This document shows positions 39,001 through 48,000 of a DNA stretch of 64,000 nt, piece after piece. The DNA lies in assembly GCA_965218425.1 (NCBI GenBank), contig OZ244621.1, forward strand, positions 4,256,001 through 4,320,000. Direction: 5' to 3'. A program made the position numbers. The DNA comes from an uncultured Candidatus Binatia bacterium (GTDB taxonomy: Bacteria > Desulfobacterota > Binatia > UBA9968 > CAXXLF01). How positions within the stretch are numbered: the first letter of the stretch is position 1; every line of letters begins with the position of its first letter.

Positions 39001-42000
39001 TAAGCCTTCTGAAATACCCTTGCCTCCGCAATCAATCTTGGGGGAGTGGTGCTGTAGAGATTAACCCGCCCTTCCTTTTTGGCCGCTGCCACTGTCTTTT
39101 TCCATTCTGCTTGCCAACCGGGTTTGGCCTCAGCAGCGAAAGATGAGCCCAGCCTTAAGAGCCCCAGCATCATAATCAATGCCATGCTCAATGTTCGAGG
39201 CCAATTCGCCTTCTGATCCGTAGACATCCGAATCTCAAAATTAAATAAGGATATTTTTTTCATCGTTACCTCTCTTTTATGGTCAAAGATTCTGGGGATT
39301 TCATCACCTCATCATACAGGGAAAACCACTAGCATCCGGTTGGAATTGAAAAGCCAGGCCTCCGAGAGAGAGAGAAGCTCGGGCTTCCTTCCTTCCATTG
39401 CGCCGGCCAAGCAGATCCAGTTTAGAAACTCATGCTGTCCTGAATCGATGATCTGCTTGGGATCCAAATCCCGCCACTTATATTGCTGTCCCGCAAACAG
39501 CTCCGCACGTCGTGCCCGGTCCGCCTCCATGTCTGGCCACAGGTAATGATGCTTTGTGGTGAGAGACCCATGGGACCAGCTCGCAGAGCCAATTACCACT
39601 GCTCGCCAAGGGCTCTCCTTAATGATCTGAGATACCGCCTTTCCCATGTCATAGCAGCGCCACGGCAGAGGAGACGGCGGAGGCGTTACCGGCATGCCTT
39701 CGAGCTTGCGCCCGATCTGCTTGGTATCCTCGATCTTGACACCCGGGGGCGGTATCCGAAGGTCGACCCCGTAGCAGTTGACCGCAATGGGCACTACCGG
39801 GTGAGGAAATTTTACATGCTCTGTTTCGTCAAGATCCATATAATCAACCGTCCACGTGAACGCGTGTCCATAGGACGGCCCGTGCCCAAGCTTCCACGAG
39901 CAACCGACTTCAAACCCTTTGTAGATCAGCTCGCGCACGATGTGGTTCGCCGCCTGTGGATGCCCTTTAATTGTAACCTTGGGCTTGTACCGGGAGCCAC
40001 CTCCGGCAACGCGCTCATCGCAGAGAACTTCATCAATGGCAAATACGGTGAAAGGCGTGAGCAGGTCGTCCTGGACGTTCTCGTACTGATCATCGGCAAA
40101 AATCAGGACGAAGTCCGGCTTAAAATCGTCGATTGCTTTGCGCGCTAGCCGGAACCCCTTTTGAAGCTCGTCCTTGTATTTCTGCGCCGCTTCGCGTCCC
40201 TCGTCATCGCCCCACTCCTTTCTCATCTCCTCCGGCCAGTTCTTCGGATCCCGTAATTCCACTGGCGTGTCCGGATGCGCGAGGTTCTTGCGAAGATAGT
40301 TATCCATTCGGCCAATGGAGGCTCGAACTAAAGTATGTGTGCAACCGATTCCTAATATCTCACCCATACGCGTTCCTCCTTTTATTCTACAGGGTTATTG
40401 AATCGATTCATTAATACACAGCCGGCAGTAGACGGCCTCGGGCAAGGCTTGGGAGACGGTTATAGCCATCCAAACACGCTCATTTCGACCATCTCAAATT
40501 CGTAACCGCCATTGACAAACCATCATTCGGAGCGAGAGGAAGGAGCCTTGCCCGCCCGAGCTTCTGCGACATATTCACACATGGCATCGTAAATGATGCG
40601 AGCCACAGGTCCATAGCGAGAGGTCGGTTTGTCGATCTGACTTGCGGCGATGCCAAGCATATTTGAGGTTCCGCCAATTGGGGGACCGTCTGCGTTATAC
40701 TGTCCTACGGTAAATATCGATAACTCTTTCGTAATGCGTGCAGCGATAGGGGGAGGAATTCGGGAGAGGACAATACCGAATGCCCCGGCATCTTGGATGG
40801 CATGGGCGTCGCCCAGCATTGCTTCTTCGTCCATATCGTAGACCTGATCGGTGCTAATCGTTGCCATCCCCATGCTCATCATCGGGGTGGCTCCGATGTG
40901 GCCCAGGACGGGAATACCGGCATTTACGATCGCCTCCACAACTGGCGCAAACCGTTTCCCTCCCTCTAGCTTGACTCCGTCTGCGCCGGCTTCTTGAATG
41001 AAGCGTCCTGCGTTCCGGACCGCTTCGTCAATGTTGACCTGGTAGGACATAAAGGGCAGATCGCCGACGACAAAGGCGCGCTCGACTCCACGAGCCACCG
41101 AGCGCGTCATGATCAACATCTCCTCCATCGTGCAGGACTGGTTGTTCGTATGGCCGAGGACGACACGTCCGCCACTATCGCCAACTAGAATCAGGTCGAT
41201 CCCGGCGCGGTCCATGATGCTCCCCATCTGATAGTCGTACACAACGGCCGTCACGATCGCTTTTTTCTCCCGTTTCATTCGCCACAGATCCGGGATCTTT
41301 ACCTTATCCATTAGCTAACCCTCCTGTCGCTCCGGGGCATGTGTGTTCTTGTGGATCTCAATATCTCCATCCGGCCTATCCGGGCATTGCTGGTGCCATC
41401 ATCAGGACCGGGGATGATGTCTGCTGTCGCAAATGGACTTCTTGTCTTTTTCGTGAGGACTCCATAATGGCCAGGCAGGCCTCAAGGCTTGCTCGACCCC
41501 AGGCGGCATCGGGAAACACCGGGCGGTTCTCCTCAAGGCTAGCCTTGATTTCCGCCACTTCCGGCGCCCCCCTACCAATCGATGCCGGAGGAAGAAGAAT
41601 TTCTTCTCGCCCCTTTTCCGTATTGACGTAGAGACCGTGCTCCGATTGCCGTATATCCCCCCGCTCACAACTCACAATGGTCACGCCAAAAAAGTCCTGG
41701 GCCACGTCGCCCTTCGCAGCAGCCATCTCCCTCCGTTCGAGATCTTTCATGCCAGTCGCCTCCAGCTTCCGATAGAATTCCTCTGATTGAACCGGAGCTG
41801 TCGGAGTACGCCGAGGCCCGTAGATAACTTCCTGAGGCATCTTCGCCCCGCTCTCTCCACGGTCCCATGTGATCTCAAAAGTGGTGAAATGGCCGTAGCC
41901 GCTGAAGTACATGAGGGCGGTAACGCCCGACTCGAAATCCAACAACGCACCGTAATTCCCTTCGACATCAAAGTAAGGATACCAACGGCCAGTCACTCCC

Positions 42001-45000: not shown

Positions 45001-48000
45001 CTGCATCTTTTCTTCACTGATCTCGTCAGCGATCCATGGCGGTGCCACTTGAAGGAGCGCGGCGTAGTCAATCCGTGGATCGTGCACATCCTTCTCGGCG
45101 ACTTTCTTCACCTGGCTTGGATGGGTTCCCAACGTCGAAGCGTGGCCAGTCCCTATACCCAATACGATCCGTGCCATATGCTCCTCCTCTCAGAAGGGTT
45201 TGATCCCTTCGAACAACAGGGCCCACTTCTCCTGCAACTGCCCGTGAAATTTTTTACTTTTCATGTTCACCTCGCCGAATTGCCATAGGGCCGTCTTCTT
45301 CGGGAACCCTCGCCGTTTTTACCGGTCTTCACCGAGCCGCGTTTTCCGCCTTGGTGCCGTTCAACCATCACCAGGGCTAGGAACCTGATGAGACATGTAG
45401 ACCTCACGACGCTCGCGTGCGGACTGCATAATGCCGAGAACCACCTCCAGGGTGGCCTCACCCCACCGACCATCGTGGGACACGGGGCGGTCATGGACCA
45501 CCGCCTGGTACAGTTCCTCGAGCTCCGCTTCCCGGCCCCGGTCGGTCTTCGGCACCGGGACCTCCCACTTCTCCCTGTCTCCGTAGATGTACAGCCCGTG
45601 GGGCGACTGCCGGATGTCCCCGTGCTCACAGCTAACGACGGTGATACCGAAGTGGGCATGGGGGTGGTCCTCGTCCCGTATCCGGGCGTTCTCCTGTCCT
45701 CCCCCGTAACGCCTGACCGACTTGAGCTGTGCCTCTTCCTCAGGGGACTGGAGGGAGGCGATGCGGGCACGGGAGCGCAGATTCTGGTCGGGAGGCCGGA
45801 TCCCTTCCCCGATCCAAGAGGTGAACTCGGCCGTGTCGAAGTGGGCATAGCCGGTAAACACGTCGGTAGCAGGGGTGCCATTCTCGAACTCGATGTAGGT
45901 CACCCAGGCTCCCTCTGCGCGCCTGGCAGGATCCCACATCCCTGTCATACCCCGCACACTCCGTACCATTCCGCCACCCAGCAATCGCACGATATCGACA
46001 GAATGGGGGGCCTGCCTGTACAAGACGTTACCACCCAGGCTGGGGTCTAGCTCGGTGGGGTTACGAGAGCGGTACAGCCAGTCCTGGTAATGCCAGGTAT
46101 TGATCATGCAGAGATCGCCGAGCTCGCGGCTGCGCACGATCTCGTGCATCTTGCGGATAGGGGCGTCGAAGCTATGGGTGTGGCCACACAGCAGCTTGAC
46201 ACCGTTGCGCTCCACAGCGGCGTTCATGGCCTCGCACTCCTCAATGGTGAGGCCCATGGGTTTTTCGACGATGATGTGCTTGCCATGTTCGGCCGCCATG
46301 ATAACGTGCTCGGCGTGGAACGGGTTAGGGGTGCAGACATAGACTGCGTCCACGTTGGGGCTTGCGCACAGCTCCTCGGCCGTGTTGAAAACCTCGCCAC
46401 CGTATTCCCGGATGAATTTGTCGCGCGCCGCCTGACGAGGCTCCGCGGCGGCGGCGACGCGCAAGTGGGGATGCTTGGCAATAGCCGGCACGATCTGCGC
46501 CGCCGCTACCCCAAGCCCCACGACGCCAAACCTGAGTTCTTTGTGTGACGGTTCTACCAAGGCCATAGTCAAACCTCCTCAACTCGCTGACAACCTCTCA
46601 CTATCATCACGCCACTCGGTGCTTTAATCACTTCATATATTGTTTAAGAGCCGTATCGGCACCTTTTTTAACGGTGCTGCACACCAAAACCGATTCCAAA
46701 GGTCCTCGCCACGATTGCCACGCCGGCAGTCATGGCGATCATTGTCAGACTGTATATTCCAGCCTTTTCCAGCTCTACAGTCGACGGATCAGACATCATC
46801 GTCAATATCAAAATAGAGATCGTTTGCGTTTCCTCAGCCGCCAGCAGAATAATGCTCGACGTCGTACTGGCAGCTAGAGTGAAGTTGAAGATACCCATCA
46901 TCACCAGGGTGGGCATCACGAGAGGAATCCAGACCTTGAAGTACGTCCGTAACCAGCCCGCCCCCGACACCCGGGCCTGCTCCTCTAGATCGGCACCCAC
47001 CTGCAGGATTGTCCCCTTTGAGATCTGCGTACTCAACAGCTTCCCCTGCATGATCACTACCAAAACCAAAGCATAGATCGTGCCGTACAAAGGTGCCAGG
47101 ATTGGCGTGCCCAAAAATAGCCATAGTAGGCCTAGGCCTGACAGCATCCCCGGGATAGCGCTAGACGTCCAGAACACATAGTCCAAAAGCGTCCGTCCTG
47201 GCCATCGGGTACGCACGATGACATACGCTATCATGGAAAAGACTAGCGGAGAAACCACGGCGGTTGTCGCGCTCAGCACAAAGGTTGTACGCGCCGCGTC
47301 CAGAAACTCCCCAATCTGCAGGGCATCAATCCAATGAGACACTGTGAACGTTGGAGTCGCTGCGAATATGCCGACCCTTGTCATGAAACTCCCGCCAAGC
47401 AGCGTAATCGCCGGAACGATCGTCAACAAACTGGCGACCCCAACGATAACCGCGATGACCATCGGCTGCGCCCACCCAAGATCTATCAGCCCTAGGCGAA
47501 ACTGCCCAGTCACTGTCGTATACCGTCGGCGCGCCAGCATCCAGCGCTGAAGGGGGACGATTATCGCGATAATGATCAGCGTTACGCTAGCTAAGGCAGT
47601 TGCCTGCCCGTAGAGCGGAGGAAAATTCACCCGAACCATCTCATAGATCAAAGTAGAGTAGACGAAAAACCCGACCGCTTTACCCAGTAGCTGTTCTATC
47701 TCGAAGCTCTGGAATAACCTAACAAAGTTCAACAAAAAGACGAGCAGCATGGCCGGCATCATTACCGGCAATGTCACTCTCATCATTGCCCGCAGCTTGG
47801 AAGCACCTGAAACCGCCGCCGCCTCCTCGAGAGCCAGATCCATGTTCCGGAAAGCCGGTGTCAGCAACATCACCTTCTGCGATATCCCATTCCCCATCAG
47901 GTGAGCCCAGACAATTCCCGGGAGGCCATATATATTGAAGGGGCCCTGATCTATGAATGGCAGGGCCTCGGCCAACCTGTTGAGCAAACCCATCCGTGGG

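Follow-up and report, generated by a model that had tools for sequence, protein, structure and literature searches.

Why should a bacterium with a complete pantothenate operon carry six further genes of the ketopantoate hydroxymethyltransferase (PanB, KPHMT) family, some of them amid genes for aromatic ring cleavage? Three of the six lie in the 64,000-nucleotide stretch of Candidatus Binatia DNA analyzed here (the window), all on the minus strand: 34488-35294, 40523-41311 (the focal gene), and 56031-56813.

One panB and six diverged paralogs

A profile search of the 4,459,497-bp genome matched Pantoate_transf (PF02548) in seven places, the number given in the preliminary description of this DNA. 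The gene at C1:2533567-2534343 is the true panB, and it is followed by panC (Pantoate_ligase) and panD (Asp_decarbox, 5.5e-45). The other six are 29 to 63% identical to each other and, in a MAFFT alignment of all seven copies, 29 to 42% identical to the true panB. Public annotation names each of them 3-methyl-2-oxobutanoate hydroxymethyltransferase. Five of the six missed the NCBIfam panB cut-offs, and only the paralog at C1:3955663-3956466 exceeded both.

The same alignment bore out the motif pattern reported earlier. All seven copies retain GDS, D[ML]P, and K-x-[ED]; in place of the Glu of the LEG motif ('VVLEGIP' in the true panB), the six paralogs have T, S, T, T, T, and T, with the focal gene carrying the Ser. 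Furthermore, GHxGLTPQ is altered in several of the seven copies. The positions retained in the paralogs include (E. coli numbering) Asp45, Ser46, Asp84, Lys112, and Glu/Asp114, which we take to hold Mg2+ and the carboxylate and carbonyl of the 2-oxoacid, with Ser46 and Lys112 as the presumed 2-oxoacid binders. The replaced residue corresponds to Glu181, presumably the general acid/base in the E. coli PanB structure.

Proteins with Thr or Ser at position 181 form one clade apart from canonical PanB (177 leaves; support, 0.988). It contains two subfamilies, group A (54 leaves) and group B (121 leaves), and 2 other leaves. In a family alignment of 320 members (133 canonical, 54 group A, and 121 group B rows), Glu181 was invariant in 133/133 canonical rows; its replacement in 100% of the clade is a matter of definition, and Thr was the substitute throughout group B (100%) and in 93% of group A. 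The clade has also lost the C-terminal F-P motif of PanB and the Ile of the canonical TIGIGAG (IGIGAG), which packs on the gem-dimethyl group in PanB. Group A has gained GDSGGR, with Gly47 in 51 and Arg or Lys49 in 49 of its 54 rows. Arg49 was found in 1 of the 133 canonical rows and in 44 of the 121 group B rows and is thus not conserved in group B, which carries the substitutions E114D, H136Q, and V179D.

Four of the paralogs are under purifying selection (dN/dS, 0.026 to 0.17 against G004, a genome of the same genus). The gene at 56031-56813 is 92% identical to its G004 ortholog, with a dN/dS of 0.086. In the AF2 model of the focal protein (mean pLDDT, 88.6), strand E40-43 precedes residue 49 and strand E179-183 has residue 183 as its last position, which would put both residues in the barrel's catalytic mouth. 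PanB chains were the best matches in a fold search (Foldseek TM, 0.71 to 0.84), oxaloacetate decarboxylase and PEP-mutase/ICL superfamily lyases ranked next, and some clade relatives showed a weak PEP_mutase Pfam match. In two database proteins, a group-B-like domain is fused to an alpha/beta hydrolase.

Association with ring-cleavage genes

The focal operon has the order LigB, Rieske/LigXa_C, GFO, PanB-like, with gaps of 340, 48, and 64 bp (Table 1). This agrees with the earlier statement that most of the paralogs close their operons, but not all do: the paralog at C1:4329482-4330273 is the first gene of its own operon, and the one at 56031-56813 lies inside its operon, with a Rieske gene on one side and a LigB gene on the other. 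The 150-aa protein gene beside the latter is conserved in G004 (L127:8597-9049). The paralogs at 34488-35294 and C1:4104421-4105185 have solute-binding protein (SBP), cupin, and MetE-like genes as neighbors and no adjacent LigB gene.

Table 1. Genes of the PanB-like loci in the window
Position	Strand	Product	Matches
34488..35294	-	Second PanB-like protein, 268 aa, group A; GDSGGR, 'LLLTRVP'	Pfam Pantoate_transf 231.4 bits; NCBIfam panB 192.7, below cut-off
35307..36359	-	NMT1-type solute-binding protein, 12 bp upstream of second PanB-like gene	Pfam NMT1
36485..37657	-	Cupin-domain protein, 390 aa, possible ring-cleavage dioxygenase, upstream of second PanB-like gene	Pfam Cupin_2 27.3 bits, weak
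38082..39263	-	ABC-type solute-binding protein, downstream of focal operon	Pfam SBP_bac_1 / SBP_bac_8
39312..40367	-	Diverged LigB-like protein, 351 aa, 155 bp downstream of focal gene	Pfam LigB 50.1 bits, no single stretch passing; two weak pieces in separate profile search
40523..41311	-	Focal PanB-like protein, 262 aa, group A; GDSGGR, KLE, 'VLSRIP' (Ser at Glu181 position)	Pfam Pantoate_transf 234.9 bits; PDB 1oy0 3e-41, 1m3u 2e-32; NCBIfam panB 185.5, below cut-off of 207.55
41376..42596	-	GFO/IDH/MocA dehydrogenase, 406 aa, resembles phthalate-pathway cis-dihydrodiol dehydrogenases	Pfam GFO_IDH_MocA; PDB 3moi 1.5e-71, 7wzd '4,5-dihydroxyphthalate dehydrogenase' 8.6e-65 (residues 2-389)
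42645..43889	-	Rieske oxygenase alpha subunit, phthalate-dioxygenase family, LigXa_C domain, 414 aa	Pfam Rieske + LigXa_C; PDB 7fhr 'putative phthalate 4,5-dioxygenase' 5e-54, 7fjl 2.6e-50
44230..45177	-	LigB-type (class III) extradiol ring-cleavage dioxygenase, 315 aa, first gene of focal operon	Pfam LigB 78.3 bits; PDB 1b4u LigB 2.8e-11; NCBIfam class III extradiol dioxygenase subfamilies, all below cut-off
53201..54280	-	Cupin-like protein, 359 aa, after LigB gene 54431..55390	Pfam Cupin_2 26 bits, weak
54431..55390	-	LigB-type extradiol dioxygenase, 319 aa, same operon as group B gene	Pfam LigB 77.8 bits
55542..55994	-	150-aa protein between group B gene and LigB, weak RidA/YjgF likeness	Pfam Ribonuc_L-PSP E 1.3e-4, 22.4 bits, below cut-off
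56031..56813	-	Third PanB-like protein, 260 aa, group B; KID, Gln at His136 position, 'LDLTHV'	Pfam Pantoate_transf 178.1 bits; NCBIfam panB 137, below cut-off
56856..58079	-	Rieske oxygenase, phthalate-dioxygenase family, 407 aa, 42 bp upstream of group B gene	Pfam LigXa_C 99 bits + Rieske; PDB 9ina 2.5e-62, 7fhr 1.4e-61, 7fjl 2.4e-61 (over 1-404)

In other genomes, LigB, cupin, Rieske, GFO, or UbiD genes were detected within 6 kb of 16/19 clade loci and 0/102 canonical PanB loci, and a ring-cleavage type gene near 15 of the 19; the 19 loci come largely from a single order and include many orthologs, which makes them non-independent, and the query sequences came from this genome, which favors detection in its kin. 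The three remaining relatives (L131, L137, and L144) had none of the five families within 6 kb. panC was near 0/19 clade relatives versus 46/102 canonical loci. Among 28 genomes of one genus, a cupin gene abutting the PanB-like gene has a 93 to 100% ortholog in exactly the 7 genomes with the PanB-like gene, and their cupin and PanB-like module also includes a homolog of the meta-cleavage-product hydrolases HsaD/BphD/CumD (E ~1e-36). The focal operon shares the order Rieske, GFO, PanB-like, and then ring-cleavage enzyme with seven genomes of a single genus, and several PanB-like clusters contain UbiD decarboxylase genes. We infer that the modules, a different one for each copy, degrade aromatic carboxylates. 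Their components would be a Rieske dioxygenase of the phthalate type, a dihydrodiol dehydrogenase of the GFO family, and a ring-cleavage dioxygenase (LigB or cupin), often together with UbiD and sometimes with a meta-cleavage-product hydrolase.

Proposed reaction and alternatives

The six paralogs are probably an undescribed keto-acid-splitting enzyme, not vitamin-synthesis enzymes; in the literature, we found no paper on a Thr/Ser-181 PanB-like subfamily. Most likely, they perform Mg-dependent C-C cleavage of a 2-oxoacid from ring fission, by retro-aldol reaction or decarboxylation. The clade, its residue pattern, the purifying selection, and the gene association are demonstrated here; the substrate class we infer, and the reaction type is our guess. 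Our preferred reading, held tentatively, is that the clade derives from PanB, has changed its function, no longer makes ketopantoate, and carries out the retro-aldol cleavage of a ring-fission 2-oxoacid.

The proteins retain the TIM-barrel fold and the Mg2+/2-oxoacid residues but lack Glu181 and the gem-dimethyl-packing Ile. In the proposed mechanism, the ring-fission product, or the compound that its hydrolysis or hydration yields, would bind to Mg2+ through its 2-hydroxy-dienoate or 2-oxoacid end, and a C-C bond would break through a metal-stabilized enolate. Retro-aldol cleavage of a 4-hydroxy-2-oxoacid, the reverse of PanB's chemistry, would yield pyruvate or another 2-oxoacid. Judged from sequence, a tetrahydrofolate-independent step of this kind is plausible; canonical KPHMT is described as a tetrahydrofolate-independent class II aldolase in vitro in PMC7610986. 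Against this reading, the genome also encodes other candidate lyases: one HpcH/HpaI, a DmpG-like gene adjoining an FAA-hydrolase gene, and, in line with the earlier counts, 3 RraA-like, 13 Aldolase_II, and 11 DHDPS-like matches including dapA.

A different reaction at the same Mg-enolate site is conceivable, at clearly lower probability: a (vinylogous) beta-keto acid could be decarboxylated, the ring-fission product could be hydrated or undergo keto-enol tautomerization, or a dihydroxy-aromatic acid could lose its carboxylate before ring cleavage. Since the lost Glu181 is the presumed acid/base, decarboxylation, tautomerization, or hydration of an Mg-bound enolate would fit equally; the loss suits a reaction without a general base and may point away from aldol chemistry. 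Among the nearest folds after PanB is PA4872 (3b8i), an oxaloacetate decarboxylase that belongs to the same superfamily. The UbiD genes suggest polycarboxylated substrates, but they also mean that several PanB-like operons already have a decarboxylase. For the dihydroxy-aromatic acid, the argument is gene order: phthalate operons run oxygenase, dehydrogenase, decarboxylase, and the PanB-like protein, encoded after the Rieske and GFO genes and before the ring-cleavage gene, would fill the decarboxylase's place. However, gene order tells reaction order poorly, and the retained Ser46 and Lys112, if they bind as we assume, are better suited to a 2-oxoacid than to an aromatic acid.

The preliminary description had also offered formaldehyde trapping, in which formaldehyde from a neighboring Rieske demethylase is taken onto a 2-oxoacid; uptake onto folate would be a variant. 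We consider one-carbon handling of either kind unlikely. O-demethylases do occur among LigXa_C-type Rieske proteins, no GFO gene lies between the Rieske (56856-58079) and PanB-like (56031-56813) genes of the third locus, and KPHMT accepts free formaldehyde in vitro, as also described in PMC7610986. Yet the two Rieske proteins tested matched phthalate dioxygenases at 1e-54 to 1e-62 versus ~1e-12 to 1e-17 for DdmC and NdmA, and most Rieske genes are paired with a dihydrodiol-dehydrogenase homolog. The enzymes that the adjacent Rieske and GFO proteins match, phthalate 4,5-dioxygenase and 4,5-dihydroxyphthalate (dihydrodiol) dehydrogenase, together free no formaldehyde, which argues against trapping. 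No folate/C1 genes were found among the neighborhood proteins scanned, and the catalytic Glu and 2-oxoisovalerate pocket are altered. Moreover, the divergence among the six copies points to pathway-specific substrates, hard to square with one generic by-product.

That the paralogs are redundant or condition-specific PanB isozymes still making ketopantoate, as the public annotation and the score of C1:3955663-3956466 would have it, is highly improbable given the intact panB-panC-panD operon elsewhere, the failure of five of the six at the panB cut-offs, the absence of panC near the 19 relatives, and a clade defined by replacement of a Glu found in every canonical row. The original interpretation stands in part: the paralogs, with the Glu181 equivalent and the Ile gone, do not look like pantothenate enzymes and travel with ring-cleavage genes, but its formaldehyde branch is disfavored.

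Comparison with known systems

PanB/KPHMT (EC 2.1.2.11; PDB 1m3u, 1oy0, 1o66, 3vav, and 3ez4) shares with the paralogs the Pfam family, the fold (E, 3e-41 to 8e-31; TM as above), and the Mg/2-oxoacid ligand positions. Unlike PanB, the paralogs have Thr/Ser for Glu181, lack the IGIGAG Ile, the F-P motif, and nearby pan genes, and carry the group A or group B changes described above. The next-best folds, PA4872 and the PEP-mutase/isocitrate-lyase lyases (3b8i, 3fa3, and 1ujq; E ~1e-9; TM, 0.55 to 0.60), share the Mg-enolate logic but only 10 to 16% identity.

The retro-aldol chemistry that we prefer would resemble that of HpcH/HpaI, BphI/DmpG, and the HMG/CHA aldolase LigK/GalC, namely, 4-hydroxy-2-oxoacid cleavage through an Mg-bound 2-oxoacid enolate as the closing step of ring cleavage. 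We liken the conserved group A Arg near the metal to the catalytic Arg of class II 2-oxoacid aldolases. Unlike these enzymes, the PanB-like proteins belong to another family and have no PF03328, PF00682, or PF03737 match; the genes that do encode such proteins in this genome lie elsewhere. Finally, the focal Rieske and GFO proteins are homologs of the first two enzymes of the phthalate pht/oph operons, phthalate 4,5-dioxygenase and dihydrodiol dehydrogenase, and the PanB-like gene after them presumably matches the place of the decarboxylase. Unlike pht/oph, the focal operon has no class II aldolase-type decarboxylase gene, and a LigB or cupin ring-cleavage gene stands in the same unit as the PanB-like gene.

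Results

Six diverged paralogs beside a complete pantothenate operon

A whole-genome profile search gave seven Pantoate_transf matches in the single 4.46-Mb contig (C1), and a Pfam scan of the 51 window ORFs placed three of them in the window, including the focal gene. The best match (395.6 bits) is the true panB; panC and panD come next, which gives pantothenate synthesis a complete operon of its own. The six paralogs scored 149 to 287 bits against PF02548, whose gathering cut-off is 28.7. Of the six, only C1:3955663-3956466 exceeded the cut-off of the NCBIfam equivalog TIGR00222 (207.55 bits), with 228.6 bits; the focal protein reached 185.5 and the others 192.7, 153.3, 137 and 122.1, and the true panB 357.9. 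Among the fetched loci, the nearest relatives of the true PanB (L121:7559-8362; C1:2533558-2534361) were found in a MAG labelled Syntrophobacter (L015) and on metagenome contigs, with 68% identity; PanB of MAGs labelled Chloroflexota was less close.

As the preliminary description had stated, all seven copies retain the motifs GDS, D[ML]P and K-x-[ED], and the Glu of 'VVLEGIP' is replaced in six (MAFFT). Its claim that most of the paralogs close operons was borne out by gene order for two of the six, the focal gene and C1:3955663-3956466, and not for the other four. In the focal operon, the four co-directional ORFs are separated by 340, 48 and 64 bp.

Coordinates and gene order of the focal operon and the six PanB-like paralogs (window positions, or C1 for the whole contig; SBP, solute-binding protein)
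Feature	Coordinates	Strand	Group	Context
LigB-type dioxygenase	44230-45177	(-)		Focal operon
Rieske/LigXa_C oxygenase	42645-43889	(-)		Focal operon
GFO/IDH/MocA dehydrogenase	41376-42596	(-)		Focal operon
Pantoate_transf protein, 262 aa (focal paralog)	40523-41311	(-)	A	Focal operon; closes LigB, Rieske, GFO, PanB-like; then diverged LigB-like gene and SBP
PanB-like paralog	C1:3955663-3956466		A	Closes SBP, UbiD, Rieske, GFO, ..., UbiD, PanB-like
PanB-like paralog	34488-35294		A	After NMT1-type SBP and cupin gene
PanB-like paralog	C1:4329482-4330273		B	Opens PanB-like, LigB, Rieske, RidA-like, GFO, UbiD, RidA-like, SBP
PanB-like paralog	56031-56813		B	Between Rieske gene and 150-aa protein; LigB and cupin-like gene beyond
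PanB-like paralog	C1:4104421-4105185		B	After cupin, MetE-like and a gene without assigned family

All six paralogs are intact. Four have orthologs in the same-genus genome G004 (89 to 97% identity; dN/dS, 0.026, 0.086, 0.17 and 0.071). For the focal protein, an AlphaFold2 model based on a 30-sequence clade alignment reached a mean pLDDT of 88.6. Foldseek matched it best to PanB chains (TM, 0.71 to 0.84) and next to the PEP-mutase/isocitrate-lyase superfamily (3b8i, an oxaloacetate decarboxylase; 3fa4, 1zlp, 1ujq and 4mg4; E values, 2e-9 to 2e-8). An ESM Atlas search returned PanB clusters only. Judged by their intactness, the low dN/dS and the confident model, the six genes are functional.

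A Thr/Ser-181 clade with altered active-site residues

The paralogs form two groups, A and B, with 43 to 61% and 44 to 63% identity among themselves, respectively (MAFFT), and only 29 to 42% to the true panB. In 47 of the best 120 database hits to the focal protein, Thr or Ser occupied the Glu181 column (E. coli numbering, counted along the HMMER alignment to PDB 1m3u). These 47 were the nearest hits; from approximately 45% identity downwards, the hits were canonical, with Glu. A group B query gave a second large set of hits. In a tree of 320 sequences (the seven own copies and 313 hits of 240 to 300 residues; FastTree, LG+gamma, midpoint root), all Thr/Ser proteins fell into one clade of 177 leaves (54 A, 121 B and 2 other; support, 0.988), the sample being picked by similarity to the focal and group B queries and covering the clade only that far. 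Named clade relatives are MAGs labelled Chloroflexota, Binatia and Deltaproteobacteria, and Rhodococcus sp. JVH1, whose locus is that of WP_009478487.1.

Glu181, the presumed acid/base of E. coli PanB, is replaced by Ser in the focal gene and by Thr in the other five paralogs; all 133 canonical rows have Glu, whereas Thr stands in 93% of group A and 100% of group B. Asp45, Ser46, Asp84, Lys112 and Glu114 (the last two in 'KIEGG'), which we take to be the Mg2+ and 2-oxoacid ligands of the E. coli enzyme, align with retained residues, all of them in group A and with Asp at 114 in group B. The second Ile of TIGIGAG (E. coli Ile202), which belongs to the gem-dimethyl pocket, is lost: the column that holds Ile in 89% of canonical rows is a gap in 96 to 100% of clade rows, and T[LI][AS]GG[AS]G or GGS[AS]G stands in place of the canonical motif. 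The C-terminal Phe-Pro motif is also absent from the clade. The Ile202 loss matters because I202A is one variant of E. coli KPHMT (PanB, EC 2.1.2.11) that widens the 2-oxoacid scope (PMC7610986). Furthermore, the focal subclade has Gly-Gly at E. coli Leu213-Val214, which parallels, at the alignment level only, the variant V214G that is reported to accept large aldehydes (PMC7610986).

Group A carries Gly47 in 51 of its 54 rows, Arg or Lys at 49 in 49 of 54 (Arg49 occurs in 1 of 133 canonical rows) and Met for Gln142. Group B has Arg49 in 44 of 121 rows, together with Asp for Glu114, Gln for His136 and Asp for Val179 (98 to 100% each). In the model, residue 49 lies beyond strand 40-43 and residue 183 is the last of strand 179-183, which would place both at the C-terminal mouth of the barrel, on the active-site side.

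The sub-cut-off scores, the lost Glu181 and Ile202 and the lack of pan neighbours indicate that the clade is in the PanB Pfam family by descent and is without the features that define the enzyme. On this evidence, the PanB assignment is correct by descent and very probably incorrect by function. The protein of a proteomics study (PMC3937715) has peptides that point to canonical Rhodococcus PanB and was set aside.

Catabolic neighbors are kept in other genomes

In a same-order sample of 101 genomes, 94 had a PanB match, mostly one each, and extra paralogs occurred in a minority. For a Pfam scan, we retrieved 16 loci in 12 other genomes. Orthologs of C1:3955663-3956466 lie directly after LigB in G004 and G001. 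In seven genomes of one genus the genes run Rieske, GFO, PanB-like, cupin, alpha/beta hydrolase, with UbiD nearby, and in G011 they are near NMT1, Rieske, UbiD, GFO and cupin. The alpha/beta hydrolase of the seven-genome module is clearly homologous, over its full length, to HsaD, BphD and CumD, which hydrolyse meta-cleavage products (approximately 1e-36); the cupin of this module matches gentisate 1,2-dioxygenase weakly (4.7e-4). Among the 28 genomes of this genus, a cupin ortholog (93 to 100%) was present in exactly the seven with the PanB-like gene; as called, start codons included, the two ORFs abut or overlap.

For a controlled comparison, we ran tblastn with the LigB, Rieske, GFO, UbiD, cupin and panC proteins of this genome within 6 kb of PanB-family genes. 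One or more of these catabolic families (panC not counted) occurred at 16 of 19 clade genes in other genomes, which are mostly kin and many of them orthologous, but at none of 102 canonical Glu-type loci, which came from group A alignment scans whose patterns fit canonical PanB too. LigB or cupin was found at 15/19 and 0/102, and panC at 0/19 and 46/102, respectively. The canonical set spans many phyla; among the matches listed it comprised 158 loci, 56 of which were left out for flanks shorter than 6 kb. Glu-type genes made up 80 of 80 genome loci and 78 of 80 metagenome loci among the listed matches of the group A scans.

Group A was absent at an E value of <=1e-68 from 250 further genomes in a phylum-level sample drawn around this genome, where the three hits were Glu-type. 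No match at <=1e-60 to the Rhodococcus sp. JVH1 protein P0378 was obtained in 401 genomes around an Actinomycetota MAG, in a run without a positive control. In the plasmid collection, group B tblastn gave 120 records, all with <=36% identity and annotated as panB or unannotated, and no annotated catabolic context.

Directly behind a LigB gene, G087 carries two Thr181-clade genes in tandem (L132:8536-10147), with dienelactone-hydrolase and NMT1 SBP genes on the other strand. In the database proteins P0472 and P0473, a group-B-like Thr181 PanB domain is naturally fused to a C-terminal alpha/beta-hydrolase domain, which in P0472 is esterase-like (E value, 2e-10) and less like meta-cleavage-product hydrolases; a link of the fusions to the latter is, at best, weakly suggested. 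Other long PanB fusions are mostly canonical PanB-PanC or PanB-PanE, all Glu-type among those checked.

Neighboring enzymes resemble a phthalate-type dihydroxylating system

Over its full length, the focal-operon GFO protein matched 3moi (1.5e-71) and 7wzd ('4,5-dihydroxyphthalate dehydrogenase'; 8.6e-65). The focal-operon and group-B-adjacent Rieske proteins matched the phthalate 4,5-dioxygenase structures 7fhr, 7fjl and 9ina with 5e-54 to 2.5e-62, but the demethylases DdmC/NdmA with only approximately 6e-12 to 2e-17. The focal-operon LigB protein is distantly related to protocatechuate 4,5-dioxygenase and to gallate dioxygenase. Based on these identities, we propose that an aromatic carboxylate would be dihydroxylated, re-aromatised to a dihydroxy acid, decarboxylated where UbiD is present, and then ring-opened.

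RidA/YjgF-like proteins of unusual length (approximately 200 to 250 aa) repeatedly lie beside LigB and Rieske genes (window 60206-60961 and 55542-55994; L119:6086-6814 and L119:2681-3286). 2-Aminomuconate deaminase is a member of this family, and some RidA-bearing modules may handle amino-aromatic acids. A TENA/THI-4/PQQC-like protein, also haem-oxygenase-like, adjoins a 260-aa protein without Pfam match (window 29381-30199 and 30177-30959); its paralog (L118:7778-8602), kept in G004, is 1 kb from the PanB-like gene C1:3955663. Upstream of the most diverged paralog, an operon (L120:11146-14647; C1:4106145-4109646) encodes a cupin, a MetE-like protein (Meth_synt_2, 400 aa) and a 357-aa protein without family, and is also kept in G004 (L129).

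The window lies within a very large catabolic island (window 1-64000; C1:4095000-4339000) with phthalate-family Rieske oxygenases (in the window, at least nine), dioxygenases of the LigB and bicupin types, UbiD, GFO dehydrogenases, and many ABC solute-binding proteins with fused 580-aa permeases. It is broken up by integrase-core (rve) and helix-turn-helix transposase-like ORFs (window 1301-4256 and 23446-24497). The syntenic region of G004 contains Mutator-family transposases that split a Rieske gene (L128:5988-8846). Near-identical copies of the operon 40523-45177 were found in sequencing runs of eight studies under eight different organism labels, which suggests a host-associated bacterium sequenced as a passenger.

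In one metatranscriptome and two presumed RNA runs, a few contigs of 150 to 220 bases fell on the LigB, LigB-like, GFO and Rieske genes and none on the PanB-like gene; DNA carry-over is possible in these runs. A promoter and terminator scan of 38000-46700 gave counts at or below the shuffled expectation.

Discussion

The retained ligands point to a substrate that ends in a 2-oxoacid or a 2-hydroxy-enoate, and this end would be bound on Mg2+. To our knowledge, every extradiol ring-fission product has such an end, as do its hydrolysis products. The altered pocket makes 2-oxoisovalerate an unlikely substrate. Reversing the PanB reaction gives a retro-aldol split of a 4-hydroxy-2-oxoacid, and canonical KPHMT catalyses aldol reactions without folate in vitro (PMC7610986). 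Together, the ligands, the reverse chemistry and the in vitro activity favor a metal-dependent lyase that would break a C-C bond of a 2-oxoacid derived from ring fission. This reading as a whole, with retro-aldol cleavage as our first choice, is held tentatively and at not quite an even chance; the aldolase idea, which the preliminary description had also put forward, appears to have better support than the related mechanisms.

That the presumed acid/base Glu is missing speaks most strongly for a different reaction at the same Mg-enolate site, such as (vinylogous) beta-keto acid decarboxylation, tautomerisation, hydration, or decarboxylation of a dihydroxy-aromatic acid before cleavage. The gene order Rieske, GFO, PanB-like is compatible with the last of these. 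We consider these alternatives, taken together, unlikely on the whole, albeit a serious competitor. In group B, an invariant Asp lies two positions ahead of Thr181 on its strand and could take over from the Glu; this Asp is missing from group A, where Arg49 is a candidate for a new catalytic or carboxylate-binding residue. The formaldehyde trap or one-carbon function, the other proposal of the preliminary description, is very improbable, since the Rieske/GFO pairs match a dihydroxylating system, no folate or C1 gene was found in the neighborhoods scanned, the site for the metal and the 2-oxoacid is kept, and the presence of six diverged copies, each in its own module, points to substrates specific to each pathway.

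The paralogs are not the sole candidates for lower-pathway steps, since the genome, with approximately 23 LigB genes, also encodes 1 HpcH/HpaI, 3 RraA-like, 11 DHDPS-like and 13 Aldolase_II proteins, and a DmpG-like gene adjoining an FAA-hydrolase gene at 3.635 Mb. More doubtful than the reading favored above, but still worth stating, is that the whole clade might form a family of metal-dependent C-C lyases that has escaped recognition and was derived from an enzyme of vitamin synthesis, serving as lower-pathway aldolase, hydratase-aldolase or decarboxylase for the fission products of polycarboxylated aromatics, with each paralog tuned to its own LigB or cupin product.

Every source that gives these proteins a name uses 3-methyl-2-oxobutanoate hydroxymethyltransferase, and in open-access full text we found no paper on this subfamily or on a PanB paralog in aromatic catabolism. 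If our reading is true, every member of the clade bears a wrong annotation (in the sample, at least 175 clusters) and genome-based predictions of pantothenate synthesis are inflated; should the wider reading of the clade as a lyase family hold, the misnamed 'PanB' entries in databases would number in the hundreds. The clade marks aromatic-carboxylate modules (phthalate-type dioxygenase, dihydrodiol dehydrogenase, UbiD, and LigB or cupin dioxygenase) without a described lower pathway, and under that wider reading would add a further, independent fold solution for the aldolase step of meta-cleavage pathways. KPHMT is already a catalyst for building quaternary centres (PMC7610986), and natural variants that differ in their pocket and catalytic residues could broaden its biocatalysis toolbox.

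The known class II 2-oxoacid aldolases (HpcH/HpaI, DmpG/BphI and RraA-like) differ from the paralogs in family: the latter match Pantoate_transf only (E value, <=1e-5), and not PF03328, PF00682 or PF03737. These aldolases combine a metal site with a catalytic Arg; the clade keeps the metal ligands, and a putative counterpart of the Arg is residue 49, which is Arg or Lys in 49/54 group A rows but Arg in only 44/121 group B rows. With the PEP-mutase/isocitrate-lyase superfamily, the focal protein, as modelled, has the TIM-barrel fold in common.
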